A stretch of 64,000 nt of DNA, from positions 152,426 through 216,425 of the forward strand of contig DATMML010000037.1 in the NCBI GenBank assembly GCA_035570235.1. The letters run 5' to 3'. This stretch comes from Vicinamibacteria bacterium. GTDB lineage: Bacteria; Acidobacteriota; Vicinamibacteria; Fen-336. The notes beneath the pieces are model-generated. The model was given only the letters and a program-made list of their open reading frames with translations. It made no database searches and was not told the DNA's origin. Below, one piece after another: positions 3,470 through 54,817 of this stretch; position 1 is the stretch's first letter; every line of letters begins with the position of its first letter. Made by a program: the position numbers and the translations under genes.

Positions 3470-3471
3470 GC

Positions 3472-23932: not shown

Positions 23933-23938
23933 CGCTCC

Positions 23939-26506
23939 CTAGCCGGCTCTGAACGTCTGCTTGAGCGTGACCCTCGCCTTGACCTTGATCCCTTTCTTCA
24001 TCGCGGGCGCGTATTTCCAGCTGCGGATGGCGGCCAGGACCGCTTCGTCCACCGCCCGGTTGCCCCCCGACTCTAGCACCCTGGGCTCCGTCACCTCTCC
24101 ATTTTCCGTCACCACGAAGGAAACGGAAACCGACACGGAGTCGCCCGACTTCATCTTGGGCGCGCTCTCCGGGTAGGAGACGGACAGTCCGGAGAGCTTC
24201 TTGGCCAGGGTGTCCACGTCGCTGGCCGCGTTCGCGTAGATATGGGCGGTGTCCACGACGTCGGCCGCGGGCGGGGGCGGGGCCTTGACGAGGGCCTTGA
24301 GCTGGGCATCGAGCTTGCCCCTCTTCCCCGCCTGGACGGTGAGCGTCCCCGCCCACGGCTCATATCCATCCTTGGTCATCTCGACCCGGCGGCTCCCCAC
24401 CCGGAGCTTGAGGTCGGTCTGGGGAGTGGGCCCAACCCGGGCCCCGTCGATCGAGACCAAGGCCCCGTAGGGAGTCGACAGGATGTCCGCCACACTGGTG
24501 GCAGGGGCGGAGCGGGTCAAGGGGATGACCGCCTCCGCCGCGGGCAGCTCCGGGCTCAGGACCACGGTCTGGGTCTTGGGCTCGTAGCCCTTCAACTCGA
24601 CCTTGACCTCGTAGCTTCCCAGGGGAAGATCCCGGAGATCGAGGGGGGTCTCGCCGCGCGCCTGGCCATTCACGGTGACCGCCGCCGCTCCGGGCTGGCT
24701 CACCACGCGGATCATGCCCTTCTTCTCCTCGATGGCGGGGGGCATGGGCTCCGGGGTCGGAAGGGTCTTGCGGGTCACGGCCACGCTGGGGGTGGGGACG
24801 GGCGGCGCGGGCTCGGTCCGGCCCGCGCTCCTGAAGAGCACGATGCCGACGAGGCCGAGGGCCAGCAGGAAGAGCAGGGCCGCTCCCCCCAGGATCAAGC
24901 CGACGGGAATGCGGGAACGCACCGCGGGGGGGCCAGCCACGGGGGGCGCCTCGGGCAGGGGGGGCGCCGTCGGCCGGGGCAAGGGTGGAGCGGCCGTCCT
25001 CCCCAAAGACCGGGTCTCTTCGAGGACGGGGTGCTTCTGGGTGGGGCCGCCCTTGTCCGCGGGCCCGCGCGACTTTGCCGTGGGCCCGGGGGCGGCCATT
25101 ACTACCGTGGCCCCCTCTTCGGCGGGCACGGAAGCATCCATGAGGATCGTCGACTCCGACGCCTCGGATCCCAGGGGGGGCGGGGGGGACGGCCGGGCCG
25201 CGGGCTTCTTGGGCAGGGCGCCTGCCTTCATGAGGACGGTGGCCGGCGCGTCGTCGGCGGGGGGAGCTTTTATGAGGACGGTGGCCGGCGAGTCGTCGGT
25301 CTCCGCCGGGGGAGGAGCGGGGGCCGAGGGTCTCTTCTTGGCCGGGGGCGGCGCGGTGGGCGCCTTCATGAGGACGGTGGCCGGGGCGTCGGATCCCGAG
25401 GGCTGGGCCTTTATGAGCACGGTCGCGGGAGAATCGTCCTCGGCCATCGGTAGGGGTGCGAGGGGTCGTTCGACCGGCTTCGCCTTGGGCGGCGCGGGGG
25501 CGCGGGTGGCCGCCGGCTCCTCCCGGGGGTGGGCCGGAGGCGGCGCCGGGGGCTGGATCTCGGGGAGAGGGATGTGGGCGAGCGTCGTGGTGGTCTCGAC
25601 GGTGGCGCTCGCGGTCACGATCGTCTGGTCCGCCCCCAGCCCGCCGAACCAGGAGCCGAGGCAATACTCCAAGTCCTGGACGAACGCGCCCGCGGTCTGG
25701 TAGCGGTCGTCGGGCTTCTTGGCCAGGGCCTTGCCGAACACCTCGTGCCATTTCTGGGGCACGAGGCCGTGCATCTCGAGGTTCGCGGGCTCGATGGGGT
25801 CGACATGCACCAGCTTGTAGAGGATCGAGGTCACGTTGTTCCCCGGGAACGGCTGCTCTCCGGAGAGCATCTCGAAGCAGCACACGCCCAGAGAGAAGAT
25901 GTCGCTCCGCCCGTCGAGCTTGTCGCCCATGGCCTGCTCGGGCGACATGTAGGAGGGCGTGCCGAGGAGGGTGCCCGACTGCGTCATCTCCGCATCCACC
26001 AGCTTCGCGATCCCAAAGTCGGTCACTTTCACCCGATCCTCGTCGAACAGGATCAGGTTCGAGGGCTTGATGTCGCGGTGGATCACGCCTTTGCTGTGGG
26101 CGTAGTCGACGGCGGAGGCGATCTGGCTGGCCAGGCCGATCACCTTCTCCGGCTTGAAGCGCACGCCCTTCTCGATGAGGGAGGCGAGGGTTTGGCCCTC
26201 CACGAACTCCATGGCCAGATAGGGCACCCCCCCCTCCTCGCCAATGTCGAAGAGGGTCACGATGTTCGGATGGGAGAGCGTCCCCGAGATTCGGGCCTCG
26301 TGGTAGAACCGCTCGATGAAGGACTTGTACTGCGGGCTCTGGCGCGGGATGTCCAGCCGGATGGTCTTGATGGCGAGGGTGCGCTTGATCAGGGGGTCGA
26401 AGGCCTTGTAGACGGCCCCCATGGCCCCGAAGCCGATGCTCTCCTGGACCTTGTAGCGGCCGATGCTCTGGGGCATCTGCTCGGTTGATCGGCTGTTGTC
26501 GTCCAT
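23939..26506 (-). CDS. serine/threonine protein kinase with peptide repeats, TM segment, two PEGA domains and TonB-C-like C-terminus
   Basis: Hanks kinase subdomains (GAMGAVYKA, HRDIKPSN, DFG, SPE); four (D/A)PATVL(I/M)KA repeats; PEGA-like β domains; C-terminal TonB-C-like fold. Confidence 0.85.
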   Translation of the reverse strand: MDDNSRSTEQMPQSIGRYKVQESIGFGAMGAVYKAFDPLIKRTLAIKTIRLDIPRQSPQYKSFIERFYHEARISGTLSHPNIVTLFDIGEEGGVPYLAMEFVEGQTLASLIEKGVRFKPEKVIGLASQIASAVDYAHSKGVIHRDIKPSNLILFDEDRVKVTDFGIAKLVDAEMTQSGTLLGTPSYMSPEQAMGDKLDGRSDIFSLGVCCFEMLSGEQPFPGNNVTSILYKLVHVDPIEPANLEMHGLVPQKWHEVFGKALAKKPDDRYQTAGAFVQDLEYCLGSWFGGLGADQTIVTASATVETTTTLAHIPLPEIQPPAPPPAHPREEPAATRAPAPPKAKPVERPLAPLPMAEDDSPATVLIKAQPSGSDAPATVLMKAPTAPPPAKKRPSAPAPPPAETDDSPATVLIKAPPADDAPATVLMKAGALPKKPAARPSPPPPLGSEASESTILMDASVPAEEGATVVMAAPGPTAKSRGPADKGGPTQKHPVLEETRSLGRTAAPPLPRPTAPPLPEAPPVAGPPAVRSRIPVGLILGGAALLFLLALGLVGIVLFRSAGRTEPAPPVPTPSVAVTRKTLPTPEPMPPAIEEKKGMIRVVSQPGAAAVTVNGQARGETPLDLRDLPLGSYEVKVELKGYEPKTQTVVLSPELPAAEAVIPLTRSAPATSVADILSTPYGALVSIDGARVGPTPQTDLKLRVGSRRVEMTKDGYEPWAGTLTVQAGKRGKLDAQLKALVKAPPPPAADVVDTAHIYANAASDVDTLAKKLSGLSVSYPESAPKMKSGDSVSVSVSFVVTENGEVTEPRVLESGGNRAVDEAVLAAIRSWKYAPAMKKGIKVKARVTLKQTFRAG
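25215..25445. repeat. four tandem copies of an approx. 22-nt unit (TTCATGAGGACGGTGGCCGGCG-like) inside the kinase CDS, encoding the PATVL(I/M)KA peptide repeats
   Basis: Direct inspection of the plus-strand sequence; copies at about 25223, 25268, 25363 and 25408. Confidence 0.5.
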
Positions 26507-26743
26507 ATCCCCCGAGCCCTGCCTACCCCTCTAATACGTTCTGCGAACGCGGAAAGAGCGTGGCAAAAGCGAGGCGAAGCACCGCACCCCTGGGCGTTCG
26601 GACTTTAGCACCAAGGTGAAAAGGTGTCAACGCGAGAGGCGCTCAAGTCACGGAGAGGGAAGGGGTTGCGGTGTCGGGTTCGGGAACAACCGAGCGTCCG
26701 CGGCCGTATGGACTGCCGGAGGCTCACCTATAATGGAGGCGCA

Positions 26744-28375
26744 ATGACGGAACGCCCCCCGGCCATTCTCGATTACGGGGTGTTCCAGCAGCCCATCAGT
26801 CCCCTCTTCCTCGACTACCTGGCCGGCCGCAACGGTGTCGAGCGCTTCCTGGGCAGCGCGCGCTGGGACCTCGATGCTCTCTCGGAAGCAAGCGACCGCG
26901 CGCTCACCCACGAGCGGCCCCGGGAAGCGGTGGCGGCCGCGCTCGTGCGCCAGCAGGAGTCGCGAGGAGCAGCTCACGCGGCGGCGCGGGCGGCCGAGCT
27001 CAAGGAGCCGGGCACGGTCGCGATCGTGACCGGGCAGCAGGCGGGTCTCTTCGGCGGCCCCCTCTATGTGCTCTACAAGGCCTTGGGCGCCCGCAAGGCG
27101 GCGCGGCTGCTCCAAGCGCGCCGCGGTCGTTCCGTGGTGCCCGTGTTCTGGGTGGCCTCCGATGACCACGATTTTGCGGAGGTGCGCTCCGCGACTGTTC
27201 TCGACGAGAACGGCCAGATCCGCACCCTGCGCTATAGTCCCCCCCGCGAGCCCGTGGCCCAGCCCGCCTCCCAAATCGTCCTGGACGCCACCGTGGCCGC
27301 CCTCGTGCAGGAGCTGCGGCAGTGCCTGCCCGAGGGCCTTCACCGCGACGAGGTGCTCGCGCGGCTGGGCGAGTGTTATCGGCCCGGGGAGACGCTGGCC
27401 GGGGCTTTCGCCCGCTTTCTCTCCGCTCTCCTCCCCGACCTGGTGGTGCTCGATCCCTCCGACCCCGCCCTGAAAGCCCTGATGGCCCCCCTTCTGGCCC
27501 GCGAGATCCAGGAGGGCTCCCCCACCTCCCGCCTGGCCCTCGAAACCGGCGCCGCCCTTCTGGCCGCGGGCTACCATCAGCAGGTGCCGGTGCGCCCCGG
27601 CTTCCTCAACCTGTTCGTCCTGATGGAGGGCGAGCGGCGCGCACTGGGCATCCAGAACGGCACCGTAGAGGTGCGTGGGCTGGGTCGCCGCATGCCCGTG
27701 GAGGAGGCTCTGAGGCTCCTGAATGCCGCGCCCAAGGACTGGAGCCCAGGGGTGCTCCTCCGCCCCTTGGCCCAGGACCACCTGCTGCCTACGGCCGCCT
27801 ATGTGGGGGGGCCGGCGGAGATTGCCTATCATGCGCAGATCGGCCCCGCCTACGCCCACTTCGGCATCCCCCGACCCTTGCTGCTCCCCCGCCCCAGCCT
27901 CACCCTCTTGGAGCCCGCGCAAGCCCGGGCTCTCGAAGCCGAAGGGCTACGCCTCACCGACCTCGAAGGAGACCCCGAAGGCCTGCTCACGCGCTGGGCG
28001 CGGGAGGCCCACCCGCAGGTGGAGGCCGCCTTCGCCCGCGCCCGCGAAGCCCTCCTTCAAGAGATGGCGAGTGTCGAGGAGGCCCTGGCCGCCGTCGATC
28101 CCACGCTGCGCGCGGCCGCCAACGCCGCCCGGGGGCGTGCCATCCATCAGATCGAGACCCTGCACCAGAAGTCCACCCGGGCCCTGAAAAAGCGGGACCA
28201 GAGCCGGGCCGAACGCCTGCGCCGCACGCGGGACGCCCTCTTCCCGGGGGGCTCGCTCCAGGAGCGGGGCCTGGCCCTGGTCAGCGCCCTGGCCCGCCAC
28301 GGCCAACCCCTCGTGGAGGAGACCGAGCGCGGCCTCGACCCCTGGGCACGGGGACATCAGGTGATACAACTGTGA
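26744..28375 (+). CDS. bshC: bacillithiol biosynthesis cysteine-adding enzyme BshC
   Basis: IVTGQQAGLFGGPLYVLYKALGA N-terminal signature of the BshC/YllA family; 543 aa; GGAGG RBS 5 nt upstream of ATG. Confidence 0.75.
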   Translation: MTERPPAILDYGVFQQPISPLFLDYLAGRNGVERFLGSARWDLDALSEASDRALTHERPREAVAAALVRQQESRGAAHAAARAAELKEPGTVAIVTGQQAGLFGGPLYVLYKALGARKAARLLQARRGRSVVPVFWVASDDHDFAEVRSATVLDENGQIRTLRYSPPREPVAQPASQIVLDATVAALVQELRQCLPEGLHRDEVLARLGECYRPGETLAGAFARFLSALLPDLVVLDPSDPALKALMAPLLAREIQEGSPTSRLALETGAALLAAGYHQQVPVRPGFLNLFVLMEGERRALGIQNGTVEVRGLGRRMPVEEALRLLNAAPKDWSPGVLLRPLAQDHLLPTAAYVGGPAEIAYHAQIGPAYAHFGIPRPLLLPRPSLTLLEPAQARALEAEGLRLTDLEGDPEGLLTRWAREAHPQVEAAFARAREALLQEMASVEEALAAVDPTLRAAANAARGRAIHQIETLHQKSTRALKKRDQSRAERLRRTRDALFPGGSLQERGLALVSALARHGQPLVEETERGLDPWARGHQVIQL

Positions 28376-28394
28376 TGAGAAGGGGTGCCGCGCC

Positions 28395-29516
28395 ATGAGG
28401 CTGGGAATCACGTGCTACCCGACGGTGGGGGGATCGGGAGCGGTGGCGGCGGAGCTCGGGAAGCAGCTGGCCCGCCGCGGCCACGAGATCCACTTCGTGT
28501 CCTACCGCCGCCCCTTTCGCCTGGGCGACTTCCAGCAGAACATCACCTACCACGGAGTGGACATCTCCTCCTACCCGCTCTTTGAGTATCCCCCCCACGA
28601 CCTGGCTCTGGCCGTGAAGATGGCGGAGGCCGCCCGCGAGCACCACCTGGATCTCTTCCACGTCCACTACGCGATCCCCCATGCCATCGCCGGCTTCCTG
28701 GCCCAGCAGATGCTGGGGGCGTCGGCGCCCCGAATGGTGACCACCCTCCACGGCACCGACATCACCCTCGTGGGCCAGGACCGTTCGTTCTTCGAGATCA
28801 CGCGCTTTGGCATCGAGCGCTCGGACGGCGTGACCGCGGTCTCGGAGTTCCTGAAGCGGATGACGACGGAGCTGTTCCAGGTGAAAAACCCCATAGAGGT
28901 CATCCCCAACTTCGTGGACCTCTCCCTGTACTCCCCCGAACGCAACCATCGGGACCGCTCGGCTTTCGCCGCCCCCGGCCAGAAGGTCCTGCTTCACATC
29001 TCCAACTTTCGCCCCGTCAAACGGGTGGTGGACGTGGTGCGCATCCTGGAGCGGGTGAGCCGGGAAGTGGACGCGGTGCTCCTCATGGTGGGGGAGGGCC
29101 CGGAGCGCTCTTCCGCCCAGGCTCTCGTCCGGCGCCTGGGCCTGGAGGAGCGCGTGCGCTTCCTGGGCACCCAGGAGAGCATCGAGGAGATCGCGGGCCT
29201 GGCCGACGTGTTCCTGCTTCCTTCGGAGCTGGAATCGTTCGGCCTCTCCGCCCTGGAGGCCATGGCCTGCGGCGTCCCCGTGGTGGGCTCCGACGCGGGC
29301 GGGCTGCCCGAGGTCGTGAAGCATACCGAGAGCGGCTTCCTCCTGCCCGTGGGGGACGTGGAGGGCATGGCCGCCCGCACCCTGGAGATCCTGAAGGACG
29401 AGGAGCGCCGGCGGGAGATGGGGCAAGCGGGCCGGCGCCGCGTGGAGTTCCTCTTCAACGCCGACCGGGTGGTCAGCCAGTACGAGCGCTACTATGAGCG
29501 GGTGCTGAGCCCGTGA
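28395..29516 (+). CDS. bshA: N-acetyl-alpha-D-glucosaminyl L-malate synthase BshA (GT4)
   Basis: Near-identical N-terminal block to B. subtilis BshA (LGITCYPTVGGSGAVAAELGKQLARRGHEIHF...HYAIPHA) and a GT4 C-terminal EX7E region. Confidence 0.85.
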   Translation: MRLGITCYPTVGGSGAVAAELGKQLARRGHEIHFVSYRRPFRLGDFQQNITYHGVDISSYPLFEYPPHDLALAVKMAEAAREHHLDLFHVHYAIPHAIAGFLAQQMLGASAPRMVTTLHGTDITLVGQDRSFFEITRFGIERSDGVTAVSEFLKRMTTELFQVKNPIEVIPNFVDLSLYSPERNHRDRSAFAAPGQKVLLHISNFRPVKRVVDVVRILERVSREVDAVLLMVGEGPERSSAQALVRRLGLEERVRFLGTQESIEEIAGLADVFLLPSELESFGLSALEAMACGVPVVGSDAGGLPEVVKHTESGFLLPVGDVEGMAARTLEILKDEERRREMGQAGRRRVEFLFNADRVVSQYERYYERVLSP

Positions 29517-30235
29517 GCGACTTCGATCTCGCCGCGGTGTGCGCCCACCCCGACGATGCCGAGCTGATCATGGGGGGGACGATCGCCCGCGAGGCCGCGC
29601 GTGGCCGGCGGGTGGCCCTCGTGGACCTTACCCGCGGGGAGAGCGGCAGCCGGGGCACGCCGGAGACGCGGGCCGCGGAGGCCACGGAGGCGGCCCGGAT
29701 CCTGGGCGTGGCCCACCGGGAATCCCTGGGCCTGCCCGACGCGCGCCTGGCCGCCGTGCCCGAGCAGAAGGACGCGCTGGTGGCGGCGCTGCGCCGCCTG
29801 CGCCCGCGGGTAGTGCTCCTGCAGCACTGGGAGCAGCGCCACCCGGACCACGCCGCGGCCAGCCGCATCGTCTACGACGCGTGCTTCCTGGCCGGCCTCC
29901 GGAACTACCGCTCGGACCTGGGGCCGGCCCACCGTCCCCGGAAGCTGATCTATGCCGTGACCCTGACCGAGGCGGTGGAAGTCCCGCCCAGCATTGTGGT
30001 GGACATCACGACCACCTGGGAAACCAAGCTCCGGGCCATCGCCGCCTTTGCCAGCCAGTTCTCGCCCGGCCCCGGGGAGGCCGTGGCCCTTCCCTTCGAC
30101 CGCTTCCGGGCGCACGTCGAGCTCGCGGCCCGACGCCACGGCCAGCGCATCGACGTCGAGTTCGGGGAGGGCTTCTTGACGCGCGAGCCCCTGGCCGTGG
30201 ACGACCTTCTGTCCCTGGGGGGGCGCTCGATCTGA
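29513..30235 (+). CDS. bshB: N-acetyl-alpha-D-glucosaminyl L-malate deacetylase BshB (LmbE/PIG-L family)
   Basis: AHPDDAE zinc-binding motif of the LmbE family; start overlaps the bshA stop. Confidence 0.75.
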   Translation: MSDFDLAAVCAHPDDAELIMGGTIAREAARGRRVALVDLTRGESGSRGTPETRAAEATEAARILGVAHRESLGLPDARLAAVPEQKDALVAALRRLRPRVVLLQHWEQRHPDHAAASRIVYDACFLAGLRNYRSDLGPAHRPRKLIYAVTLTEAVEVPPSIVVDITTTWETKLRAIAAFASQFSPGPGEAVALPFDRFRAHVELAARRHGQRIDVEFGEGFLTREPLAVDDLLSLGGRSI

Positions 30236-32691: not shown

Positions 32692-33921
32692 TTGACTCCG
32701 CTCCCATCCATGAACCTGCCCCCACCCGCCGAAGGCGCCGCTCCCGCCTCCCGCTCCTGGCCCCTCGTCTGGGCCTGGAGTCTCGCGGTCTGGTTCGTGG
32801 TCTGGGTGCTCATGTCGAGCCAGGCCTACGCCTACTACCGAGGCCGGGACCTGCCCGTGCCCTGGGTACGGTTTGTGGGATCGCTGAGCGATGCCCTGAT
32901 GTGGGGCCTCGCCTCCCCGGTCGTCTTGTGGTTTTGCTGGCGGTGGCCCCTCTCCGGCGGGCGCTGGCGAACCACCCTGCCCCTCCATCTTCTCGGTGGC
33001 CTTCTCTTCCCCGCCGCGTTAATAGCTCCCGCGAGCCTCGCGCACTACGGGCTGGGCCGCGCTCTGGCCGACCCCGGCCTCTACCAGCCCCTTTCCCCCG
33101 GCCTCCTCTTCCACAATCTGGTGGGCAATATCTTTACCTATATCGATGTCGTGGCCGTGGGCCTTGCCCTCCACTACGCCCGCGACTCGAGGGCCAAGGA
33201 CCTCCGGGCCTCCAGGCTCGAGGCGCGCCTGGCCGAGGCCCAGCTCCAGGTCCTGCGCATGCAGCTCCACCCCCACTTCCTCTTCAACACCCTGCACACC
33301 ATATCCGCCCTCATGCATAAGGACCTGAAAGCGGCCGACCGCATGCTGGCCCTGCTGGGGGATCTGCTGCGCGACTCCTTCGCCAAGATCGGAGCCCAGG
33401 AGGTGACCTTGAAGCAGGAGCTCGACTTCCTGGAGCGCTATCTCGAGATTGAGAAGACCCGCTTCCAGGACCGGCTGCGGGTGGAAACCAAGATCGACCC
33501 CGAGACCCTGGACGCCGAGGTTCCCAACCTTCTCCTGCAGCCCCTGGTCGAAAACGCGCTCCGGCACGGCATCGCCCGCCGACGGGAGGCGGGCCTGATC
33601 GAGCTCGTGGCCAGACGGGAGAACGGCCGCCTCGAGCTCAGGGTGCGCGACGACGGCCCCGGCTTGCCCTCGGAGGCCGAGATGTCCCGGCGCGGGGGGG
33701 TCGGCCTCGCAAACACCCAGGCCCGGCTGCAGCAGCTGTATGGCTCGGCCCACCGCTTCGAGCTCTTGAACCGGCCCGAGGGCGGCCTGGAAGTGGTCCT
33801 GTCCCTTCCCTTCCGCGTTCAAGGCCAGGCCCTGGAGGAAGGGAATAACCCTCACGTCTTCCGCGGGGGCGTCGCTCCCCTCTCCGAAAAAGGGCCTCCC
33901 CCGAGTTCTCCCCGCGACTAG
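32692..33921 (+). CDS. LytS/YehU-family sensor histidine kinase
   Basis: N-terminal TM region, His_kinase (PF06580-like) LHPHFLFNTLHTI H-box, HATPase_c with N-box QPLVENALRHGI and G-box. Confidence 0.8.
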   Translation: MTPLPSMNLPPPAEGAAPASRSWPLVWAWSLAVWFVVWVLMSSQAYAYYRGRDLPVPWVRFVGSLSDALMWGLASPVVLWFCWRWPLSGGRWRTTLPLHLLGGLLFPAALIAPASLAHYGLGRALADPGLYQPLSPGLLFHNLVGNIFTYIDVVAVGLALHYARDSRAKDLRASRLEARLAEAQLQVLRMQLHPHFLFNTLHTISALMHKDLKAADRMLALLGDLLRDSFAKIGAQEVTLKQELDFLERYLEIEKTRFQDRLRVETKIDPETLDAEVPNLLLQPLVENALRHGIARRREAGLIELVARRENGRLELRVRDDGPGLPSEAEMSRRGGVGLANTQARLQQLYGSAHRFELLNRPEGGLEVVLSLPFRVQGQALEEGNNPHVFRGGVAPLSEKGPPPSSPRD

Positions 33922-34042
33922 ACCCCCCGCTTCGGGCCATCGACCCGGGCCGCCCCCGGCGCACCCTGCAGCTTCTTGAACGCAAGCGGAACCTGGGGCA
34001 TGGCGGAAACGTACCTCTTTTGAACCCGTCCATCCGCAGGTC

Positions 34043-34837
34043 GTGGGGGCACCCGTCCCGAGGGGGAGCTTGAAGATCCGGACGCTGATCGTGGACGACG
34101 AGCCCCTCGCTCGCGAGCGCATGCGCTCGCTCCTCTTGAAAGAGCCCGACGTGAAGATCGTCGCGGAGTGCCGCGACGGGCAGGAGGCCATCAGCGCCAT
34201 CCGCCGCGAGAGCCCCGATCTCGTCTTCCTCGACGTCCAGATCCCGGAGCCGGACGGGTTCGCGGTCCTGGAGGAGGTGGGGGCGGACAAGGCGCCGGTG
34301 GTCGTGTTCGTGACCGCCTACGATCAGTACGCTCTCCAGGCCTTCGAGGTCCATGCCGTGGATTACCTGTTGAAGCCCTTCGACGAGGAGCGATTCCAGA
34401 AGGCGCTGGTCCGGGCCCGCTCCGCCGTGCTGACCCGGGACGGGGAGGGGGTGGACGAGAGGCTAATCTCGCTCCTGAGGGACCTGAAGGCCCCCCCCGG
34501 CTACCTCGAGCGGCTGGTGGTGAAAGCGGCCGGGCGTCTCTTCTTCCTGCGCGCGGAGGAGATCGACTGGATCGAGTCGGCCGGCAACTACGTTTCCCTG
34601 CACGCGGGCGGGGAGTCGCACTTGCTGCGGGAGACCATGACCGCTCTCGAGGGTCGGTTGAACCCGGGCCGCTTCGTGCGCATCCACCGCACCGCCATCG
34701 TCAACCTCGACCGCATCAAGGAGCTGCAGCCCCTCTTCCACGGCGAGTATCAGGTGGTGCTGCGCGACGGCACCGAGCTCACGCTCTCCCGCGGCTACCG
34801 CGAACGCTTGCAGGAGATCATTGGCCGCGAATTCTGA
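34043..34837 (+). CDS. LytTR-family response regulator
   Basis: Receiver domain (LIVDDE...FLDVQIP...D) plus C-terminal LytTR DNA-binding domain. Confidence 0.85.
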
Positions 34838-34895
34838 CCCTCCCCTCCGCGTCGCCTCTTGACAATGCGCGGGCCCGGAACCGAGAATTCGAACG

Positions 34896-35228
34896 GTGAT
34901 CACAGGGTTTAACACCGACGTGAAGTATCGGGGCCTTGTCTACCATGTCCAGACCGAGGACAAAGGCGAGGCCAACCCCCTGATCGAGACCCTGATCTAC
35001 AAAGGCGGAGAGATCCTCGCTTCCCGCCGCCTGCCCTATGCGGAGCTGATCCGCAGCCGCGACGACGAGGCCGCCATCACGAAGCTGATGGAAGATCAGC
35101 ACAAGGGCATGATCATGGAGGTCAAGCGCGGGAAGTTCGACCCCGGAGTGGACCGGACAGAAATCGAGGACCTCTCCCTGGACGAGATCGTGCTCGCCTA
35201 CCTGGCGGGGCGGGCCGCCGCCAAGTAA
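34896..35228 (+). CDS. small hypothetical protein (110 aa)
   Basis: Clean ORF with balanced composition and lower local GC; no recognised family. Confidence 0.35.
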   Translation: MITGFNTDVKYRGLVYHVQTEDKGEANPLIETLIYKGGEILASRRLPYAELIRSRDDEAAITKLMEDQHKGMIMEVKRGKFDPGVDRTEIEDLSLDEIVLAYLAGRAAAK

Positions 35229-35558
35229 GCCCGCTCGCTCCCCCGCCCCGAACAAGCGTCTTTGCGGAAGCCCTGGCTTTCGTGACCGCGGGTGGGTAGG
35301 GGGCGTGGACCCTGCGTGTTACCATCCCCGCATGAGCGCGGGCGCGCCGGCCCGAAGAGGCCGTGGGCTTCGGGGTCCACGAAGTCGCGGGCCGAGACCC
35401 CCATCGCCCTTCCCCTCCCCGTCGACCCTGCGCTCGTGACCAGGAGCCTCAAGACACGGGCGTGGCGCCGCTACCCCGGCCACGAGCGCGGCGCCGCGGA
35501 GAGGCGCCCCCGCTCTCGCGGCAGCGCGCCCCCCCAAGGCGGAGGGGCTTAGCTGCCC

Positions 35559-36851
35559 TTGCCAAGCGCGAGCGACGACCCGAGCCTGGACGCCTTGCGT
35601 CAGAGGCTCGACGCGGAAGAGGCGGCCTACGCCGAGCTGCTGGCCGCGGTCGATCGTCTGGCTTCCTTCCCCCTTCCTGCGGAGGCGCTGCCCGATCTGC
35701 CCGCCCGGGTTGGTCTCCTCAACATGCTCTGGGAGGCCCCGCCCCCGCCCCCGGGGTCGGGGTTGGGAGGGAAGGCCAGGAGGTGGGTCTGGGAGGCGCT
35801 GGCCCCCGCCCGCGCCCGTCAGACCGAGTTCAACGCCGCCCTCGTCCAAGTCCTGAACGGCTACCTGGAGGAGACGGGCCGGCTGCACGCGCGCTTGCGC
35901 GAGCTCGCCTCCGCCCTCGTCCACTATCTGCAGCGCGTCCTCCCTCTGGTCGACCTCCGCGACCGCATGGCCTCCGCCCTCGCGACCACGCGCGCGGAGC
36001 TGATTCTCGAGGCCTTCGACCGGCGACAGGAGTCCCAGGCCCGGCGGCTTCAGGGCCTGCTCGCCCTGCGCGACCGCCTGGAGACCGTGTCCGCGGAGGT
36101 GGACGCCATTCGGGGAGCGCTGGGAGCGGGGGCGCCGCCCCCGGCCCTGGCCATGTCGGCGCTGCGCGCGGCGGAGGACTCGGCCTACACCGCGTTCGAA
36201 AACCGCTTCCGCGGCAGCCGGGAAGAGATCCGGGAGCGGCTCGCCGGCTACGCCGCCCTCTTCCAGGGTCTCGCCCCCGTCGTGGACCTGGGCTGCGGCC
36301 GCGGGGAGTTCCTGGACGTGCTCCGGGAGCGGGGCATCGCCGCCCGCGGCGTGGAGGGGAACGCGAGCGCGGTCCAGCACTGCCGGGACCGGGGCTTCGA
36401 GGTGGTCTTCGGCGACCTTCTGGCCTTCCTCCACGCCGAGCCCGCGGGTGCCCTGGGGGGCGTGTTTGCGGCCCAGGTGGCCGAGCACCTCCCCCCCGCC
36501 GTCCTGGGGCAGATGCTCAAGGAGGCCCACCGCGCCCTCCGGCCGGGCGGGCTCCTCCTCCTGGAGACCGTGAATCCGCGCTCGGTGGTGGGCTTCCTCG
36601 AGGTCTACAACCGCGACCTCACGCACGAGCGGCCGCTGCATCCCGACACGCTGAGCTTCTTGGCCGCGGCCTCGGGCTTCACCGACGTGCGCGTGGAGCT
36701 GCGCTCTCCCGTGGACCCCTCCTCCCGCCTCCAAGCCATCCCCCCCGAGGGCTTGCCCGAGCGGGCGGCCACGCTCCTGAACGAAAACCTGGAGCGGCTG
36801 AACGGCCTGCTCTACGGGCCCCTGGAGTACGCGCTCATGGCGCGTCGGTAG
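35559..36851 (+). CDS. class I SAM-dependent methyltransferase with N-terminal coiled-coil region
   Basis: VVDLGCGRGEF motif I and downstream motifs; N-terminal approx. 200 aa helical/coiled-coil; TTG start uncertain. Confidence 0.65.
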   Translation: MPSASDDPSLDALRQRLDAEEAAYAELLAAVDRLASFPLPAEALPDLPARVGLLNMLWEAPPPPPGSGLGGKARRWVWEALAPARARQTEFNAALVQVLNGYLEETGRLHARLRELASALVHYLQRVLPLVDLRDRMASALATTRAELILEAFDRRQESQARRLQGLLALRDRLETVSAEVDAIRGALGAGAPPPALAMSALRAAEDSAYTAFENRFRGSREEIRERLAGYAALFQGLAPVVDLGCGRGEFLDVLRERGIAARGVEGNASAVQHCRDRGFEVVFGDLLAFLHAEPAGALGGVFAAQVAEHLPPAVLGQMLKEAHRALRPGGLLLLETVNPRSVVGFLEVYNRDLTHERPLHPDTLSFLAAASGFTDVRVELRSPVDPSSRLQAIPPEGLPERAATLLNENLERLNGLLYGPLEYALMARR

Positions 36852-36873
36852 AGGAAGGTCGGGGCCGACTCTC

Positions 36874-38184
36874 ATGCGCCTCGCCTTCCTGACCCCCCTC
36901 CCCCCCGCCTCCACCGGCGTCGCCGACTACAGCGCCGAGGTCCTGGCCCGGCTCGCGGAGCGTCACGAGATCGACGTGTTCCACGGGCAGGACCGCTTGG
37001 ACCCCTCCCGCATCCCGGGGCCGTGCCGCGTCCACCACGCGAGCGGCTTCCTGAATCGTCACGCGCAACGGCCCTTCGACCTCGCGATCTACCAGATGGG
37101 GAACGGTCTCGATCACGCTTTTCTCTACGAACCGCTGGCGAGGGTCCCGGGCCTGCTCGTCCTGCACGACCTGGTGCTGCACCACTCGCGGGCCCGGATG
37201 TTCCTGGACGCGCCGGAGGTGGTGGCCTATCGCCGCGAGCCCTCGAGCCCGGGGCGGCGCGACGCCGCCCGACCCCACCTCCAGGCCTACCGCGACGAGG
37301 TCGCCTACTCGTATCCCGGGCAGGCGGGCCGCCTGGACGAGGCCCACCTCTCCACCCTGGGCCGCCTCCTCCCCTACGCCTTTCCCCTCTTCCGCATCCC
37401 GGTGGAGGCCTCCCGCCTCACCGCCGCCCACAACGACTTCGTGCTGGAGTCGGTTCGGTCGGAGGTACCGGAGGCGGAGGTGGCCCGGATCCCCATGGCC
37501 GCGGAGAGGGCGGCGGTGGCACCCAGCGCGGTCCTTGAGCTGCGCGCGCGCCTGGGCATCCCCGCCGGAGCCTTCGTAGTGGGAACCTTCGGCCTCCTCA
37601 CCCGGGAGAAGCAGATCGAGACCCTGGCGAGGGCGGTGGCGCGGGCGGCGGTCGCGCTCCCCCATCTGTGGCTGCTGCTGGTGGGACCCGTGCCCGACCC
37701 CGGCCGTCTCACCCGCCTCCTGCTCGAGCGGGGGGTGCGGGAGCGGACGATCGTGACCGGCCCCGTCCCCTTCTGGACCCTACCCGCCCACATGGAGGCG
37801 GCCGATCTCGTCGTTCACCTGCGCTACCCCACCGCGCGGGAGACTTCGGCCGCCCTGCTGCGGGTCCTGGCCCAGGGCCGCCCCACCGTGATCTCCGACC
37901 TCGAGCATCTCGACGACGTTCCCGCGGGGGCCGCGGTTCGCGCCGACGTCACCGACGAAGAGGGCGAGGTGACGCGGGCCATCCTCCGGCTGGCCGGGAG
38001 CCCGGCGGCGCGGGGCGAGCTCTCGCGGCGCGCCCGCGCCTTCATGCGCCGCGAGCATTCCTTCGCCCGCTCTCTGGAGGGGTACGAGGCGGCGATCGAG
38101 CGCGCCCGGGCCCGCCCGGACCCCCCGCCTCGGCCGTGGCCCGCCCACTGGCCGCGTCCCCGGCGCCCCGGGGAACCCGCCTAG
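36874..38184 (+). CDS. glycosyltransferase family 4 (GT-B)
   Basis: GT4-like N-domain and C-terminal retaining-GT fold; length 436 aa. Confidence 0.75.
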   Translation: MRLAFLTPLPPASTGVADYSAEVLARLAERHEIDVFHGQDRLDPSRIPGPCRVHHASGFLNRHAQRPFDLAIYQMGNGLDHAFLYEPLARVPGLLVLHDLVLHHSRARMFLDAPEVVAYRREPSSPGRRDAARPHLQAYRDEVAYSYPGQAGRLDEAHLSTLGRLLPYAFPLFRIPVEASRLTAAHNDFVLESVRSEVPEAEVARIPMAAERAAVAPSAVLELRARLGIPAGAFVVGTFGLLTREKQIETLARAVARAAVALPHLWLLLVGPVPDPGRLTRLLLERGVRERTIVTGPVPFWTLPAHMEAADLVVHLRYPTARETSAALLRVLAQGRPTVISDLEHLDDVPAGAAVRADVTDEEGEVTRAILRLAGSPAARGELSRRARAFMRREHSFARSLEGYEAAIERARARPDPPPRPWPAHWPRPRRPGEPA

Positions 38185-38188
38185 ACGC

Positions 38189-38551
38189 TCAGGTAGAGGA
38201 GACGGCGTCCCGGGCCTCGGCCAGAACCTGGACGAGCCGCGCCCGAACCCTGGGCGCGATCCGGGTGAACTCCAGGCCCACGCCGAAGCGCCGGCGATCG
38301 CCGGTGGTGCCCAGGGCGCAGGCGGCCACGCGCGCCTCCACGTCCGCCTGCTCCCCGGCCACGATCAGGCGCAGCTTCAGGACGGAGTCCATCTCCAGGG
38401 CGAGGGGCGACTCGATCATCATTCCGTAGGAGCTCACGCGCACGAGCTCGGCCCCCACCACGGAGACGAGGGGGACCCCATCCCGGGCGGGGATGCGGAG
38501 GGCACGCCGCCTCTCCAGGCCCTCGGGTCCGAACGCTCCACGCTGCCTCAA
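38189..38551 (-). CDS. PilZ domain protein (putative c-di-GMP receptor)
   Basis: RRRALR (RxxxR) followed by a DxSxGG-like segment (VSSYGMMIES); TTG start overlaps the upstream stop by 2 nt. Confidence 0.45.
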   Translation of the reverse strand: MRQRGAFGPEGLERRRALRIPARDGVPLVSVVGAELVRVSSYGMMIESPLALEMDSVLKLRLIVAGEQADVEARVAACALGTTGDRRRFGVGLEFTRIAPRVRARLVQVLAEARDAVSST

Positions 38552-39270
38552 GAGACCTCGCGCAGCACGCGGAACCCGTAGTCCGCGTATCGCATGCTGG
38601 GAAGGAGGCTGCTGCGCGCGGCGGGGGAGGACCAGCGGACGCGGTGGCGCCACGATCCCCCCCGGCTCGACCGCCGCTCGCCCTCCGCCGGCCCCCGGAG
38701 GTTTCGCGTCGGCCCCGCCCGGTAGAAGTCGGCCCGGTACCAGTCCAGGCACCACTCGTGGACGATCGTGCCCATGTCGAAGAGGCCATAGCCGTTCGGC
38801 GTCCCCTGTCCCACCCGCCAGGGGCCGGAGAGGGCGCCCTCCGGCACCTCTCCCGGCGGCAGCGCCGCGCCCCAGGCCGTGGCCGCCGAGGCCAGGCCGC
38901 CGCGCGCGGCCCGCTCCCACTCCGCCTCGGTGGGGAGACGCCAGCGCCCTCCCACCGTCCGCGAGAGCCAGGAGCAGTAACCCGTGGCATCGAACCACGA
39001 GACGCCGACCACCGGCTGCTCGGGGGCCCAGAATGCGGGATCGGACCACCAAGGCGGGGCCTCCACCCGCCCCCCGGCCAGGAACCGGGCGTAGGCGAGC
39101 GTCGTGACCGGGGTCCGCCCGATGTGGAAAGCGGGAACCTCGACTTCGTGGACGGGGCGCTCATCGTCGCGGCCGTCGTCCGAGCCCATGCGGAAGCGTC
39201 CGGCGGGGACGAGGGCGGTCGAGGGAGCGAGCGGAGACCGACCGGGCCGGGGCAGAGAGGCAATCGCCAT
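38548..39270 (-). CDS. formylglycine-generating enzyme family protein (FGE-sulfatase domain)
   Basis: MGSDDGRDDERPVHEV...PVT...F and GGSW/RV...R motifs typical of the FGE/SUMF1 fold; 240 aa. Confidence 0.7.
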   Translation of the reverse strand: MAIASLPRPGRSPLAPSTALVPAGRFRMGSDDGRDDERPVHEVEVPAFHIGRTPVTTLAYARFLAGGRVEAPPWWSDPAFWAPEQPVVGVSWFDATGYCSWLSRTVGGRWRLPTEAEWERAARGGLASAATAWGAALPPGEVPEGALSGPWRVGQGTPNGYGLFDMGTIVHEWCLDWYRADFYRAGPTRNLRGPAEGERRSSRGGSWRHRVRWSSPAARSSLLPSMRYADYGFRVLREVS

Positions 39271-39323
39271 GGCGACCCCTTATTCTAGAAGTGTCTCGGT
39301 TGTGGGTGTCCTCGATCCGTCAT

Positions 39324-39350
39324 CATAACTAATAGTGGACGCTAGTTATG
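39324..39350. promoter_or_regulatory. inverted repeat CATAACTA-N11-TAGTTATG in an AT-rich divergent promoter region
   Basis: Perfect 8-bp inverted repeat, with a third CATAAC copy at 39364; in a 120-bp AT-rich island between the FGE-like gene and the M28 peptidase gene. Confidence 0.3.
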
Positions 39351-39408
39351 GCATATACTATAACATAACACTCTAGGTGTTTCCAGTTCTACCAAGCGAG
39401 GACCCCAG

Positions 39409-41049
39409 ATGAGACTGCTTCTGGTCTGCGCCCTGGCCACCTTGACCGCACTCGGTCTGGCCGCGTTCCGGCCGGCCGTGGTGACCCCCCTGGAGAGAGC
39501 GGCCGCCCAGTCGATCCGCGCCGAGCAGCTGCGCGCGGACGTCCGCTTCCTGGTGAGCGATCTCCTCGACGGTCGTGGTCCGGGGAGCCGCGGAGACCGG
39601 TTGGCCCAAGCCTTCATCGCCGCGCGGATGGAGGGCATCGGCCTCGAGCCCGGCGCTCCGGATGGCTCCTGGTTCCAGCCCTTCGACATCGTGGGTGTGA
39701 GCAGCCGGCCCGCGGGGCGGATCCTCCTTGCGCGGGGGGCGGTGAAGGAGGAGCTGTGGCCGCTCGAGGACGTGGTGGCCGCCGCGGGGGTTCCGTCTCC
39801 GGAAGCGCGGATCGAAGGGGCGGAGATCGTGTTCGGGGGCTACGGCATCGTGGCCCCGGAGTTCGGCGGGGACGACGACAAGGGAGCCGATCTCAGGGGC
39901 AAAGTCCTCTTGATGATGAACCGCGAGCCCGAGAGCGGCCCCTCGAGCTTCGCGGGCGGGGGGCGGCACCAATGCGGGCGCGGGGACGAGAAGTACGACC
40001 TGGCCGCGAAAATGGGGGCCGCGGGGGCGATCCTCATCCACACCGCGCGCTCTGCCGGCTGCCCCTGGTCGCTCGTCGAGTCCTCTTGGGGCGGAGAGCA
40101 GTTCAGCTTGCCGAGCGAGGGCGGCCCCCAGCTCCGCGTGAAGGCCTGGATCACCGAGGAGGCCGCGAGACGAATCGCTCGCCTCTCCGGCCAGGACCTG
40201 GACACGCTCCGGCGGGGCGCCGAGAGGAGGGACTTCCGCCCCCTGCCCCTGGGCGTAGCCTTGACCCTCGCCTTGCGGAGCGAGGTGAGGCGCGGGCAGA
40301 CGGCCAACGTGATCGGCCGGCTGCCCGGCAGCGACCTGGGCCTGTCCCGGGAGGGGGTCGTCTACACCGCCCACCACGACCACCTCGGGGCTAAGCCCGG
40401 CCCAGACGCGAGCGCGAGCGCCGCCTGCGACCACGCCTCCGGGGTGGCCGTCCTCCTGGCCATCGCCGAAGCCATGAAGGCGTTGCCGCAGACCCCGCCC
40501 CGCACCACGTTCTTCGCGGCGGTGGGAGGAGAGGAGTGGGGCCGGCTCGGCTCGCGGTACCTCGCCGGGCGGCCTCCCCTGCCCGCGGGGCGATTGGCCG
40601 CGGACATCAACGTGGAGGGCATCGCGATCGGGGGGAGAACGCGGGACGTCACGCAGATCGATCGGGGCCAGTCCTCCCTCGACGATTGGGTCGAGGCCCT
40701 GGCCGCCGTCCAGGATCGCCACGTGGTCTCTCCTCCGTCCCCGGACGCATGCTCGCTTCCCGACCCCTTCAGCTTCGCCCGCATCAGAGTTCCGGTGGCG
40801 TCCCTCGGCTCGGGCACGGAGGCCATCGGCCAGCCGGCGGGCGGGGGTCAGAAACCAGACGAGACCGGGAAGGCCGAGGCGTCTCGTCGGCTCGCAGAGG
40901 ATGGGGACTTCGCGGGAGCGGTGGAGGACGCCCAGCTCCTCTTCTACCTGGGGGTCAAGGTCGGGAGCGCCACCCCCCGACCGACCTGGCGGGGGAGCGA
41001 CGAGTTCAAGGCCACGCGGGAGGCACGGGCCGAGCCGGGGATACGCTGA
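39409..41049 (+). CDS. M28 family metallopeptidase (aminopeptidase) with PA domain
   Basis: Signal peptide; HHDHLG and DxASGVAVLLAIAEA zinc-ligand motifs; PA-domain insertion. Confidence 0.8.
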   Translation: MRLLLVCALATLTALGLAAFRPAVVTPLERAAAQSIRAEQLRADVRFLVSDLLDGRGPGSRGDRLAQAFIAARMEGIGLEPGAPDGSWFQPFDIVGVSSRPAGRILLARGAVKEELWPLEDVVAAAGVPSPEARIEGAEIVFGGYGIVAPEFGGDDDKGADLRGKVLLMMNREPESGPSSFAGGGRHQCGRGDEKYDLAAKMGAAGAILIHTARSAGCPWSLVESSWGGEQFSLPSEGGPQLRVKAWITEEAARRIARLSGQDLDTLRRGAERRDFRPLPLGVALTLALRSEVRRGQTANVIGRLPGSDLGLSREGVVYTAHHDHLGAKPGPDASASAACDHASGVAVLLAIAEAMKALPQTPPRTTFFAAVGGEEWGRLGSRYLAGRPPLPAGRLAADINVEGIAIGGRTRDVTQIDRGQSSLDDWVEALAAVQDRHVVSPPSPDACSLPDPFSFARIRVPVASLGSGTEAIGQPAGGGQKPDETGKAEASRRLAEDGDFAGAVEDAQLLFYLGVKVGSATPRPTWRGSDEFKATREARAEPGIR

Positions 41050-49192: not shown

Positions 49193-50130
49193 ACCTCTCC
49201 GTCGAGATCGCGGGCCTGCGTCTCAAGAACCCCTTGATCGCCGCCTCCGGCACGTTCGGGTACGGGGTCGAGTACGAGGGGATCTTGGATTTGTCCCGTC
49301 TCGGCGGCCTCGTCTCCAAGGGGCTCTACCTCGAGCCCCGCGACGGCTGCCCCCCCCCGCGCATCGTGGAGACGCCGTCGGGGCTCCTGAACGCGATCGG
49401 CCTCCAGGGGGTGGGCGTCCGGGCCTTCGTGCGAGACGTCCTGCCCCGCCTCCTCGTCCACGACACCGCAATCTTCGTGAACGTCTGCGGCGACACCGTC
49501 GAGGAATACGCGGAGGTAGCGCGTATCCTGGAAGACGCGCCGGGGGTGGCCGGGCTCGAGATCAACATCTCCTGCCCCAACGTCAAGAAGGGGGGGATGG
49601 CCTTTGGTGGCGATCCCCGCATGACCCATGAGGTGGTGGCGGCGGTGCGCAAAGCCACCCTCCGGCCCGTGATCCCGAAGCTCTCGCCCAACGTGGCCGA
49701 CATCACCGTCTTCGCGCGGGCGGCCGCGGAGGCGGGCGCGGATGCCCTCTCCTGCATCAACACCCTCCTGGGCCTGGCCATCGACGTGGAGACCGCGAGG
49801 CCCGCCCTCGCCTTCGGCACCGGGGGCCTCTCGGGTCCCGCAATCCGGCCCCTGGCCGTGCGGATGGCCTGGCAAGCGGCCCGCGCGGTCAAGATCCCCG
49901 TCATCGGCGTGGGGGGGATCGCGTCCGCCCGCGACGCGCTCGAGTTCCTGATCGCGGGCTGCCGGGCCGTTCAGGTGGGGACCGCGAACTTCGTCAACGT
50001 GGGCATCTACGATCGGATCCTCGCCGACCTCGGCCACTACCTGGAGCGGCACGGACGGACGGACATCAATGAGGTCGTGGCCACCCTCTCCTATCCCGAT
50101 TCGGCCCCGGCGCCCCCGAGAAGCGAATGA
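49189..50130 (+). CDS. pyrD: dihydroorotate dehydrogenase catalytic subunit (class 1B)
   Basis: [15 protein letters not shown], active-site Cys motif, FMN-binding GGI motif; GTG start overlaps the pyrK stop. Confidence 0.9.
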
Positions 50131-50822
50131 CGCCCCGGGAGCGCCTGATCGTGGCCCTGGACCTGCCCGGCCGCGAGGAGGCGCTCGCCCTCGTCGGCCG
50201 CCTGGCCGGCCGGGCGGGGATGTTCAAGGTCGGAAGCCGGCTCTTCACCGCGGCGGGGCCGGACCTCGTGCGCGAGCTTTTGGCCCGGGGCGAGAAGGTC
50301 TTTTTGGACCTCAAGTACCACGACATCCCCGACGTCGTGGGCGCCGCCGTGGGCGAGGCCGCCCGCTTGGGGGTGTCGCTCCTGGACGTCCACGCCCTCG
50401 GCGGCCCGGCCATGATCGAGGCGGCGGCGGGGGCTCTGCCCGCCCTCGGCACGCGCCTTCTGGCCGTGACCATCCTGACCAGCCACGACCAGCCGGACCT
50501 GGACCAGGTCGGGATCGGGGGGCCGCTCACGGAGTCGGTGCGGCGCCTCGCTCTGCTGGCCAAGGCCTCCGGAGTGGACGGTGTGGTGGCCTCGCCCCAC
50601 GAGGCCGCTCTCCTCCGCGAGGCGTGCGGTCCCCAATTCCTGATCGTGACCCCGGGCATCCGGCCGGCGGGGGCGCGGGCCGGCGACCAGGCGCGCGCCG
50701 CCACCCCCGGCGCCGCCCTGGCCGCGGGAGCGGACTACCTCGTGGTGGGCCGGCCCATCACCGAGGCCCCGGATCCGTCCGCCGCGCTCGAGGCCATCGT
50801 CCGGGAGATGGAAGCGGTTTGA
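50127..50822 (+). CDS. pyrF: orotidine 5'-phosphate decarboxylase
   Basis: LIVALD...[10 protein letters not shown] catalytic lysine motif; start overlaps the pyrD stop. Confidence 0.9.
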
Positions 50823-50856
50823 CCCCCTCCCCCCCGCTCTGGTACGCTTGGAAGTT

Positions 50857-50887
50857 GAAAATGAAATTGAAATTCAATTTCATTATG
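50857..50887. promoter_or_regulatory. Fur-box-like AT-rich palindrome (TGAAATTGAA-A-TTCAATTTCA) overlapping the start codon of the cytochrome c/FTR1 gene
   Basis: Perfect 10-1-10 palindrome of GAAAAT/GAAATT hexamers (consensus Fur hexamer GATAAT) in an otherwise 70% GC context. Confidence 0.5.
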
Positions 50888-54642: not shown

Positions 54643-54763
54643 CGTTTAGCCTCCCCAGGCATCTCGCCGCGACCGGCCAGAGTACGGCGTGGCCGGACCG
54701 GCACGAGGGACTGTGTCTTATACGGGTGTTATAGCACAAAGGCAGGGTGGTCCCTAGGAAATA

Positions 54764-54802: not shown

Positions 54803-54817
54803 GCGGACCAGTTCTGA

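Follow-up and report, generated by a model that had tools for sequence, protein, structure and literature searches.

A predicted FGE-like/PilZ operon in Vicinamibacteria with a candidate c-di-GMP adaptor

We analyzed a window of 64,000 nucleotides from a Vicinamibacteria bacterium of the phylum Acidobacteriota (GenBank assembly GCA_035570235.1, contig DATMML010000037.1, positions 152,426 to 216,425 of the forward strand), whose GC content is about 70% and to which all coordinates below refer. It contains, on the reverse strand, two overlapping genes: the first (38548-39270) encodes a 240-aa protein with the fold of the formylglycine-generating enzyme (FGE), and the second (38189-38551) encodes a small PilZ protein. 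We consider it moderately probable that the core feature is this predicted two-gene operon, read from the FGE-like gene to the PilZ gene, rather than a four-gene module including the adjacent glycosyltransferase and methyltransferase genes, and that the PilZ protein is a cyclic di-GMP (c-di-GMP) adaptor acting on the FGE-like protein.

In the mechanism that we propose, the first gene would provide a cytoplasmic member of the FGE/SUMF1-EgtB-PvdO fold, in which both copper-binding cysteines are lost and the histidines H171 and H209 are conserved; its pocket would bind a ligand or a peptide, or perform a different chemistry. The second gene would provide a stand-alone PilZ protein of the c-di-GMP-binding type, characterized by RRRxxR, an 18-residue spacer and (N/D)xSxxG, and produced together with the FGE-like protein as its accessory adaptor or regulatory subunit. 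The PilZ protein would bind the FGE-like protein and switch its activity or localisation upon c-di-GMP, a pattern akin to that of MapZ-type single-domain PilZ proteins acting on a partner enzyme. It is by this analogy that we infer the binding of c-di-GMP, the physical interaction of the two proteins and the regulatory effect.

To our knowledge, single-domain PilZ proteins pass c-di-GMP signals to partners, of which few are known and essentially none from Acidobacteriota; as far as we know, these bacteria are abundant in soil and the lineage concerned is represented by metagenome-assembled genomes (MAGs) only. That the genes of this PilZ family follow those of one other family only, with a conserved coupling, provides a concrete candidate for the partner. 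The branch of the FGE fold to which this partner belongs is widespread and well conserved, and its remodelled site (His for Trp, His for Cys) marks it as a separate functional class; copper-dependent oxidation, the synthesis of sulfoxides and the binding of proteins are activities already known for the fold. The feature would be a lineage-restricted predicted operon in which a PilZ adaptor has a new type of partner. The literature that we searched contained no paper linking PilZ with FGE, SUMF1 or FGE-sulfatase domains.

Conservation of the gene pair

The stop codon TGA of the FGE-like gene (38550-38548) and the start codon TTG of the PilZ gene (38551-38549) form a joint TTGA at 38548-38551 on the reverse strand, as read from the sequence. 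A preliminary description of this DNA had reported a 240-aa FGE-fold gene ending in such an overlap, and coordinates and sequence agree with it. A GAGG motif lies 4 nt 5' of the PilZ TTG, within the last codons of the FGE-like gene, and a GAGG/GGAG-like motif stands at this place in orthologous junctions too. The tight coupling reported for the window is conserved in its relatives: 13 of the 17 orthologous junctions have a 4-nt overlap (ATGA, GTGA or TTGA), the four others having a gap of 0 nt (two loci) or of 22 nt (two loci). The overlap holds across PilZ identities of 43-88%.

GTDB species representatives were scanned with the FGE-like protein, which gave 80 loci. The family is present in Vicinamibacteria, Thermoanaerobaculia, Terriglobia, Methylomirabilota/Rokubacteria, Acidimicrobiia, Thermoleophilia, Dehalococcoidia and Chloroflexia; the scanned proteins are 47-72% identical to that of the window, and the closest locus (L003) reaches 89%. 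Using a hidden Markov model of the PilZ family, we identified a PilZ gene, besides that of the window, in 12 of the fetched loci, of which 11 come from GTDB species representatives and one is L002. The FGE-like identity is at least 61% in each PilZ-carrying locus, and the PilZ gene is always located immediately downstream of the FGE-like gene. We also looked up the contigs of six PilZ proteins with 43-62% identity to that of the window, and all six are encoded directly after an FGE-sulfatase gene; three contigs looked up for their FGE-like gene comprised two with the pair and one without PilZ. Wherever the gene upstream of a PilZ relative could be read, i.e. in 13 loci including the window and on 7 other contigs, it was an FGE-like gene. 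This pairing is far beyond chance. Because their tight translational coupling has been conserved in evolution, the two products are very probably linked in function.

The pair occurs in a single Vicinamibacteria clade only. A neighbour-joining tree of the FGE-like proteins shows loci with and without PilZ mingled in this clade, which fits a single gain of PilZ followed by repeated losses. The pairwise identities of the two proteins correlate (r = 0.85), with a mean of 49% for PilZ against 65% for FGE-like, which indicates that PilZ evolves faster. Outside the PilZ-carrying clade, no PilZ, GT4-type glycosyltransferase (GT4), methyltransferase or M28 peptidase gene was found next to FGE-like genes. 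Clustering of the open reading frames (ORFs) around 82 FGE-like loci revealed no neighbour conserved across phyla, and lineage-specific synteny only.

The FGE-like protein

The FGE-like protein matches the Pfam family FGE-sulfatase (PF03781) with 164.2 bits for a cut-off of 23.3, and its AlphaFold2 model (pLDDT 77, pTM 0.82) gives TM scores of 0.77-0.80 to solved FGEs, PvdO and ToxD. Solved FGEs are its best matches in both sequence and fold. A protein recorded for a Vicinamibacteria MAG (P0001) is 100% identical to it. It shares with the copper-dependent FGEs (human SUMF1 and those of Streptomyces coelicolor, Mycobacterium tuberculosis and Thermomonospora curvata) the same fold, the motifs RLPTEAEWE, (V)xEWxxDW and RGGS, and the active-site serine. 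It is about 50 aa shorter than these enzymes (240 vs approximately 290-300 aa). The family as a whole measures about 220-240 aa and keeps about 50% identity across several soil phyla (Acidobacteriota, Methylomirabilota, Actinomycetota and Chloroflexota). Sequence reading of the N-terminus showed no hydrophobic segment, signal peptide or lipobox; since a hydrophobic segment is missing, the protein is most likely cytoplasmic.

The catalytic copper-binding cysteines of human FGE are C336 and C341. The alignment with the S. coelicolor enzyme places His209 of the window protein at Cys272, Ser214 at Cys277, His171 at Trp234 (human W299) and Ser206 at Ser269. In that enzyme, Cys272 and Cys277 are needed for activity and their serine mutants are inactive, and Trp234 and Ser269 are active-site residues (PMC2459300). 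The catalytic loop is moreover 3 residues shorter in the FGE-like protein than in S. coelicolor FGE. Residues were counted in the 80 family members from fetched loci: none has a cysteine at either catalytic position, H171, E172, W173, W207 and R208 are invariant (80/80), and C174 (79/80), D176 (78/80) and H209 (77/80) are nearly so, which defines the signature HEWCxDW...WRH. As both catalytic cysteines are missing across the family, the sequences indicate that the protein cannot carry out formylglycine chemistry by the known mechanism and that sulfatase maturation is not its role. The invariant residues specific to this family gather where the active site used to be, which speaks for a functional pocket there, ligand-binding or catalytic.

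The idea of a genuine FGE that matures sulfatases encoded elsewhere in the genome could draw on the strong PF03781 match, on solved FGEs being the closest relatives by sequence and fold, and on the retained active-site serine S206. It is effectively refuted by the loss of the cysteines in 80 of 80 members, by the inactivity of the serine mutants and by the shortened loop. The sulfatase context is also lacking: no sulfatase (PF00884) was found among the approximately 45 genes of the window covered by our Pfam scans, nor did any show up in the list of neighbour clusters around the 82 related loci, these clusters not having been scanned against Pfam. Database names such as [quoted passage not shown] are probably wrong for this family.

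Comparison with other members of the fold was made through NCBIfam equivalog models, for which the scores of the FGE-like protein are far below the cut-offs: 90 for 420 (SenA), 68 for 360 (EgtB), 68 for 500 (PvdO), 80 for 350 (GldK) and 41 for 458 (GldJ). Unlike EgtB, OvoA and SenA, the protein consists of the FGE-like domain only, without an N-terminal DinB domain and its iron-binding histidines; unlike PvdO, GldK-PorK and GldJ, it has neither signal peptide nor lipobox. One locus (L084) shows a DinB_2 gene (3738-4511) about 1 kb downstream of the FGE-like/PilZ pair. The combination of DinB with an FGE-like domain is the architecture of EgtB and OvoA, and a split version of it is conceivable at this locus.

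The re-use of the FGE scaffold without the Cys pair has parallels in pFGE/SUMF2, PvdO, TagR, Tsi3, ToxD and CalU17, several of which work through protein binding and not through FGE chemistry. Tsi3, a type VI secretion system (T6SS) immunity protein, is a cysteine-less, non-enzymatic FGE fold that acts via protein-protein contacts (bioRxiv 10.1101/2021.05.21.445229). TagR1, an FGE-sulfatase-domain protein listed with the H1-T6SS of Pseudomonas aeruginosa, is a further precedent for contact-based FGE folds. The window family differs from these cysteine-less proteins in being small, most likely cytoplasmic and much better conserved across phyla, with its invariant HEWCxDW...WRH. No T6SS, pyoverdine or toxoflavin genes were found near the FGE-like gene, and T6SS Pfam families are absent from the scanned genes of the window and from related contigs. 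We conclude that the family forms an uncharacterised branch of its own within the FGE fold.

A bolder reading takes this branch as an unrecognised class of enzymes, in which the Cu(I)/Cys2 site would have been rebuilt around H171 and H209, and which in soil bacteria would modify a protein or a small molecule in a new way, by oxidation or otherwise; the Vicinamibacteria enzyme would then have gained a dedicated PilZ subunit and be the first c-di-GMP-gated enzyme of FGE fold. We regard this as unlikely. A metal or ligand site at the H209 loop is, from the model, a conjecture. H209 is lost (WRS/WRR, with a different loop) in L015 and L017, the two most divergent PilZ-carrying loci (FGE-like genes at approximately 2877-3599 and 8001-8723), whose PilZ proteins have a canonical D in the DISxxG motif; this may reflect a co-variation of the partners.

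The PilZ protein

The small ORF had been described as a PilZ-like protein of 121 aa with the motifs RxxxR and D/SxSxGM. The PilZ assignment stands, with a PF07238 match of 30.2 bits for a cut-off of 22.5 over residues 32-111, while the length is 120 aa plus stop. Both Pfam assignments of the pair are therefore above threshold (30.2/22.5 and 164.2/23.3 bits). The first motif is present as RRRALR (residues 14-19), upstream of the Pfam match, which starts at residue 32 only. The second motif reads RVSSYG (residues 37-42), that is, S and G are kept and an R occupies the canonical D/N position of (N/D)xSxxG. The family consensus is GLERRRxxR, an 18-residue spacer and LVN(V/I)SxxGMxIES: 126 of 132 members have an RRRxxR-like motif, approximately 87% have N or D at the first position of the second motif, and the change to R concerns the window protein and its four nearest clusters. 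Judged by these motifs, the family as a whole looks competent for c-di-GMP binding, and binding by the window's own copy, with R for N/D, is uncertain.

The AlphaFold2 model of the PilZ protein (mean pLDDT 82.6) begins with a flexible N-terminus, continues with a six-stranded beta-barrel and ends with a C-terminal helix, a layout also seen in PilZ domains solved with c-di-GMP. The best Foldseek matches in the PDB are MrkH, the PilZ domain of Alg44, MotI/DgrA, YcgR and the PilZ domain of BcsA, all with a probability of 1.00; XC1028 is also among the fold matches. A PDB sequence search with the family profile gave no match even at E<=1, so this is a divergent PilZ family. It divides into at least 407 clusters when grouped at 90% identity and into about 15-30 at 50%. 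A HMMER scan of 1.84 billion representatives with the PilZ profile gave approximately 15 clusters at E<=1e-30, weaker matches being other PilZ architectures.

In a genome of such GC content, a shadow ORF has to be considered, all the more as the PilZ frame stays open upstream deep into the FGE-like gene (287-aa ORF). This candidate explanation was rejected: GC at third codon positions is 0.92, typical for genes of a 70% GC genome, dN/dS between close orthologues is 0.15-0.46, and the Pfam match, the conservation and the structure model all speak for a protein. The alignment of 35 homologues shows strong conservation setting in just after the proposed TTG. The PilZ ORF is a true gene with a TTG start. 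The cluster that holds the window PilZ (P0121, first residue written L) is recorded from JGI only, and the neighbouring FGE-like protein from NCBI, JGI and ENA; the TTG-initiated, overlapping gene may be unannotated in the NCBI record of the source MAG.

Known single-domain PilZ adaptors include MapZ (PA4608), which acts on the methyltransferase CheR1, the Xanthomonas PilZ protein with FimX and PilB, and MotI/DgrA. The window PilZ resembles them as a stand-alone protein of approximately 120 aa whose flexible N-terminus bears RxxxR and precedes a six-stranded barrel and a C-terminal helix, and which presumably has a binding partner. It differs from them by its presumed FGE-fold partner, its translationally coupled gene and the R at the D/N position; we know of no such coupling for the MapZ and CheR1 genes.

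Several observations weigh against a c-di-GMP adaptor acting on the FGE-like protein. The R for N/D in the window PilZ and its four closest clusters may, judging from the motif, make c-di-GMP binding weaker or impossible. About half of the clade has lost PilZ, showing that it is dispensable, and the FGE-like family occurs without it in all other lineages. Of the 978 profile matches in the 1.84 billion representatives, the best 150 were inspected for a natural FGE-PilZ fusion and none was seen; the long matches among these 150 are unrelated proteins, tandem PilZ proteins or PilZ with a receiver domain. The scanned genes of the window include no GGDEF or EAL gene, and the loop bearing H209 is modelled with a pLDDT below 50. 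A Response_reg-EAL gene does lie two genes away from the pair in a related contig, which means that c-di-GMP turnover exists in the lineage.

The substituted motif, the repeated loss of PilZ while the FGE-like gene is kept, and the missing fusions would all suit another explanation, in which the pair is co-transcribed but PilZ acts on another target, or is a protein-protein adaptor blind to c-di-GMP, and shares with the FGE-like protein its expression only. PilZ domains without c-di-GMP binding are known, e.g. XC1028. However, RRRxxR is kept even in the window copy, whose gene evolves with a dN/dS well below 1, and a PilZ family that is seen only behind FGE-like genes, with a conserved overlap, is hard to explain by the timing of expression. 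We hold this explanation to be rather unlikely, and continue to favour the PilZ protein as a c-di-GMP adaptor of the FGE-like protein.

Gene neighbourhood

The FGE-like/PilZ pair converges on two genes of the forward strand, a methyltransferase gene (35559-36851) followed by the GT4 gene (36874-38184). The preliminary description had reported this arrangement, with an S-adenosylmethionine (SAM) methyltransferase ahead of the glycosyltransferase, and all four genes pass the curated Pfam cut-offs at which they were judged. The methyltransferase matches Methyltransf_23 (47.8 bits, residues 222-377), MetW, Methyltransf_25 and Methyltransf_11; its class I SAM methyltransferase domains lie within residues 220-380 approximately, the first 220 aa or so are without Pfam match, and in the PDB it is closest to 3dli (E 8e-45, residues 208-429), a methyltransferase that is uncharacterised. 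The glycosyltransferase matches Glyco_trans_1_4 (42.7 bits) and Glycos_transf_1 (31.1 bits); its PDB sequence search gave no match and its NCBIfam scores are all far below the cut-offs.

The stop codons of GT4 (38184) and PilZ (38189) face each other across a spacer of merely 4 bp (38185-38188, from ORF coordinates), too short for separate terminators, and a search of 34800-39600 for intrinsic terminators gave none. It is probable that the two operons give overlapping antisense transcripts, or that their transcription collides. On the other side, the FGE-like gene is separated from a divergent M28 peptidase gene (39409-41049, forward strand; Peptidase_M28 with 88 bits, a PA domain and a hydrophobic, signal-peptide-like N-terminus) by a spacer of 138 bp (39271-39408) with approximately 50% GC against 70% for the genome. 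This arrangement is kept within the clade, the M28 gene being upstream of and divergent from the FGE-like gene in 12 related loci and in further looked-up contigs. The spacer contains a candidate sigma-70-like promoter for the FGE-like/PilZ operon (39357-39385, reverse strand; TGGAAA-17-TATAGT with an extended TG), identified by consensus match only; 3 promoter-like sites were seen for 0.1 expected in shuffled sequences. Inverted repeats are located at 39345-39369 and 39324-39350. The regions 5' of the FGE-like orthologues are AT-rich too and have -10-like elements, their sequence not being obviously conserved. The palindromes GTTATGGCATA/TATAACATAAC and CATAACTA/TAGTTATG of the spacer overlap the promoter-like -10 element and could be a candidate operator. 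No Rfam family was found in the whole window at the gathering threshold, nor in 34800-39500 at E<=1, and this includes c-di-GMP riboswitches. PADLOC gave no match for the FGE-like, PilZ, GT4, M28 and RomY_N-like proteins, and a generic mad2 match only (43.5 bits) for the methyltransferase.

The preliminary description had joined all four genes into one module for glycan or protein modification under c-di-GMP control, in which the PilZ protein would gate the glycosyltransferase and the methyltransferase. The classical control of exopolysaccharide synthases by PilZ domains lends it some appeal, and so does gene order, the GT4-methyltransferase pair adjoining the FGE-like gene in convergent orientation in 14 of about 25 clade loci and on all the longer looked-up contigs. 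The 4 bp between the stops, with no terminator detected, could moreover let the two transcription units interfere. The usual order in relatives, written with the strand of each gene, is: M28 <- / FGE-like -> PilZ -> / variable genes / <- GT4 <- methyltransferase <- (ThiG, ThiS) <- RomY_N-like. The two operons are separate and convergent, and the slot between PilZ and GT4, empty in the window, takes 0 to 3 unrelated genes in relatives (TonB_C; TonB_C and ExbD; pirin and TonB_C; a PAP2/haloperoxidase-like gene and TonB_C). The GT4-methyltransferase pair stays where PilZ is missing (L001, L010, L013, L018, L019 and L022), and neither gene occurs near FGE-like loci outside the clade. In L083 and L084 the PilZ gene is followed by an ABATE/zf-CGNR gene, the contigs ending before any GT4 gene.

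Known PilZ-controlled synthases are of type GT2, and fused to or co-operonic with their PilZ domain. This is the case of BcsA and Alg44/Alg8, where the GT2 synthase is a membrane protein. The window recalls these systems by a PilZ domain close to a glycosyltransferase gene, and by the PilZ domains of Alg44 and BcsA among the fold matches; it differs from them by a soluble, single-domain PilZ protein associated with an FGE-like gene and by a GT4 gene in a convergent operon at varying distance. The earlier statement that the layout is unlike those of cellulose, alginate or Pel is borne out by these features, with GT4 on the opposite strand and at variable spacing. The membership of the GT4-methyltransferase pair in a common module found no specific support, and we judge such a module quite improbable. 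Because the conserved block extends to plainly unrelated genes (M28 peptidase, a circularly permuted ATP-grasp protein, ThiG/ThiS and a zinc alcohol dehydrogenase), regional synteny, in a lineage that rearranges slowly, is the best interpretation for the presence of this pair beside the FGE-like/PilZ genes. The methyltransferase and GT4 genes belong to a neighbouring, separate and convergent predicted operon, usually in the order RomY_N-like, methyltransferase, GT4.

The RomY_N-like gene (34896-35228, forward strand) encodes a 110-aa protein that matches the NCBIfam model NF053858 of the RomY N-terminal domain with 112.8 bits for a cut-off of 50. It is 67-88% identical in 11 related loci, adjoins the methyltransferase gene in L089 and L091, and is in relatives the first gene of a RomY_N-like/(ThiS/ThiG)/methyltransferase/GT4 transcription unit. 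Motility is a common target of regulation by PilZ proteins, and the fold matches of the window PilZ include MotI and YcgR. The wider block (RomY_N-like, methyltransferase, GT4, TonB_C/ExbD, PilZ, FGE-like, M28) could accordingly be imagined as a surface or motility-polarity locus, where PilZ would bring c-di-GMP input to motility and not to the FGE-like protein. The Myxococcus polarity switch MglA/MglB has the RomY N-terminal domain as a co-GAP (PMC9481161). TonB_C and ExbD genes lie between PilZ and GT4 in many relatives, and the FGE-fold proteins GldK/PorK belong to gliding and type IX secretion machines. These similarities are a thematic coincidence only. Our Pfam scans detected no MglA/MglB-type genes in the window, which is also devoid of TonB and ExbD genes at the slot, and the FGE-like protein, without signal peptide or lipobox, is nearer to FGE than to GldK (97 vs 43 bits; 80 bits for the 350 required by the GldK model). 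We find this reading highly doubtful, and the predicted two-gene operon with its PilZ adaptor remains the one that we favour.

Other genes of the window

A LytS-type histidine kinase (His_kinase PF06580 and HATPase_c) and a LytTR response regulator are encoded directly upstream of the RomY_N-like gene (32692-34837, forward strand); this pair is not conserved at that place in related loci. Further upstream, a complete bshC-bshA-bshB string (26609-30235, forward strand; bshA of type GT4, bshB a PIG-L deacetylase) constitutes a bacillithiol biosynthesis set in an acidobacterial MAG. A link of this cluster, 8 kb away, to the FGE-like/PilZ pair was considered and rejected, as no evidence connects them. 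On the reverse strand, the region 22586-26530 encodes a Ser/Thr protein kinase whose C-terminus is unusual (two PEGA domains and a TonB_C domain), and which adjoins a membrane protein of the layout FHA - double zinc ribbon - RDD. Three consecutive large ORFs of 504, 534 and 435 aa without Pfam match are located at 53131-60334 (reverse strand), downstream of a PTPS_related (PF10131) membrane protein. Finally, a long ORF at 49952-52801 on the forward strand joins cytochrome c domains with an FTR1-type iron permease.

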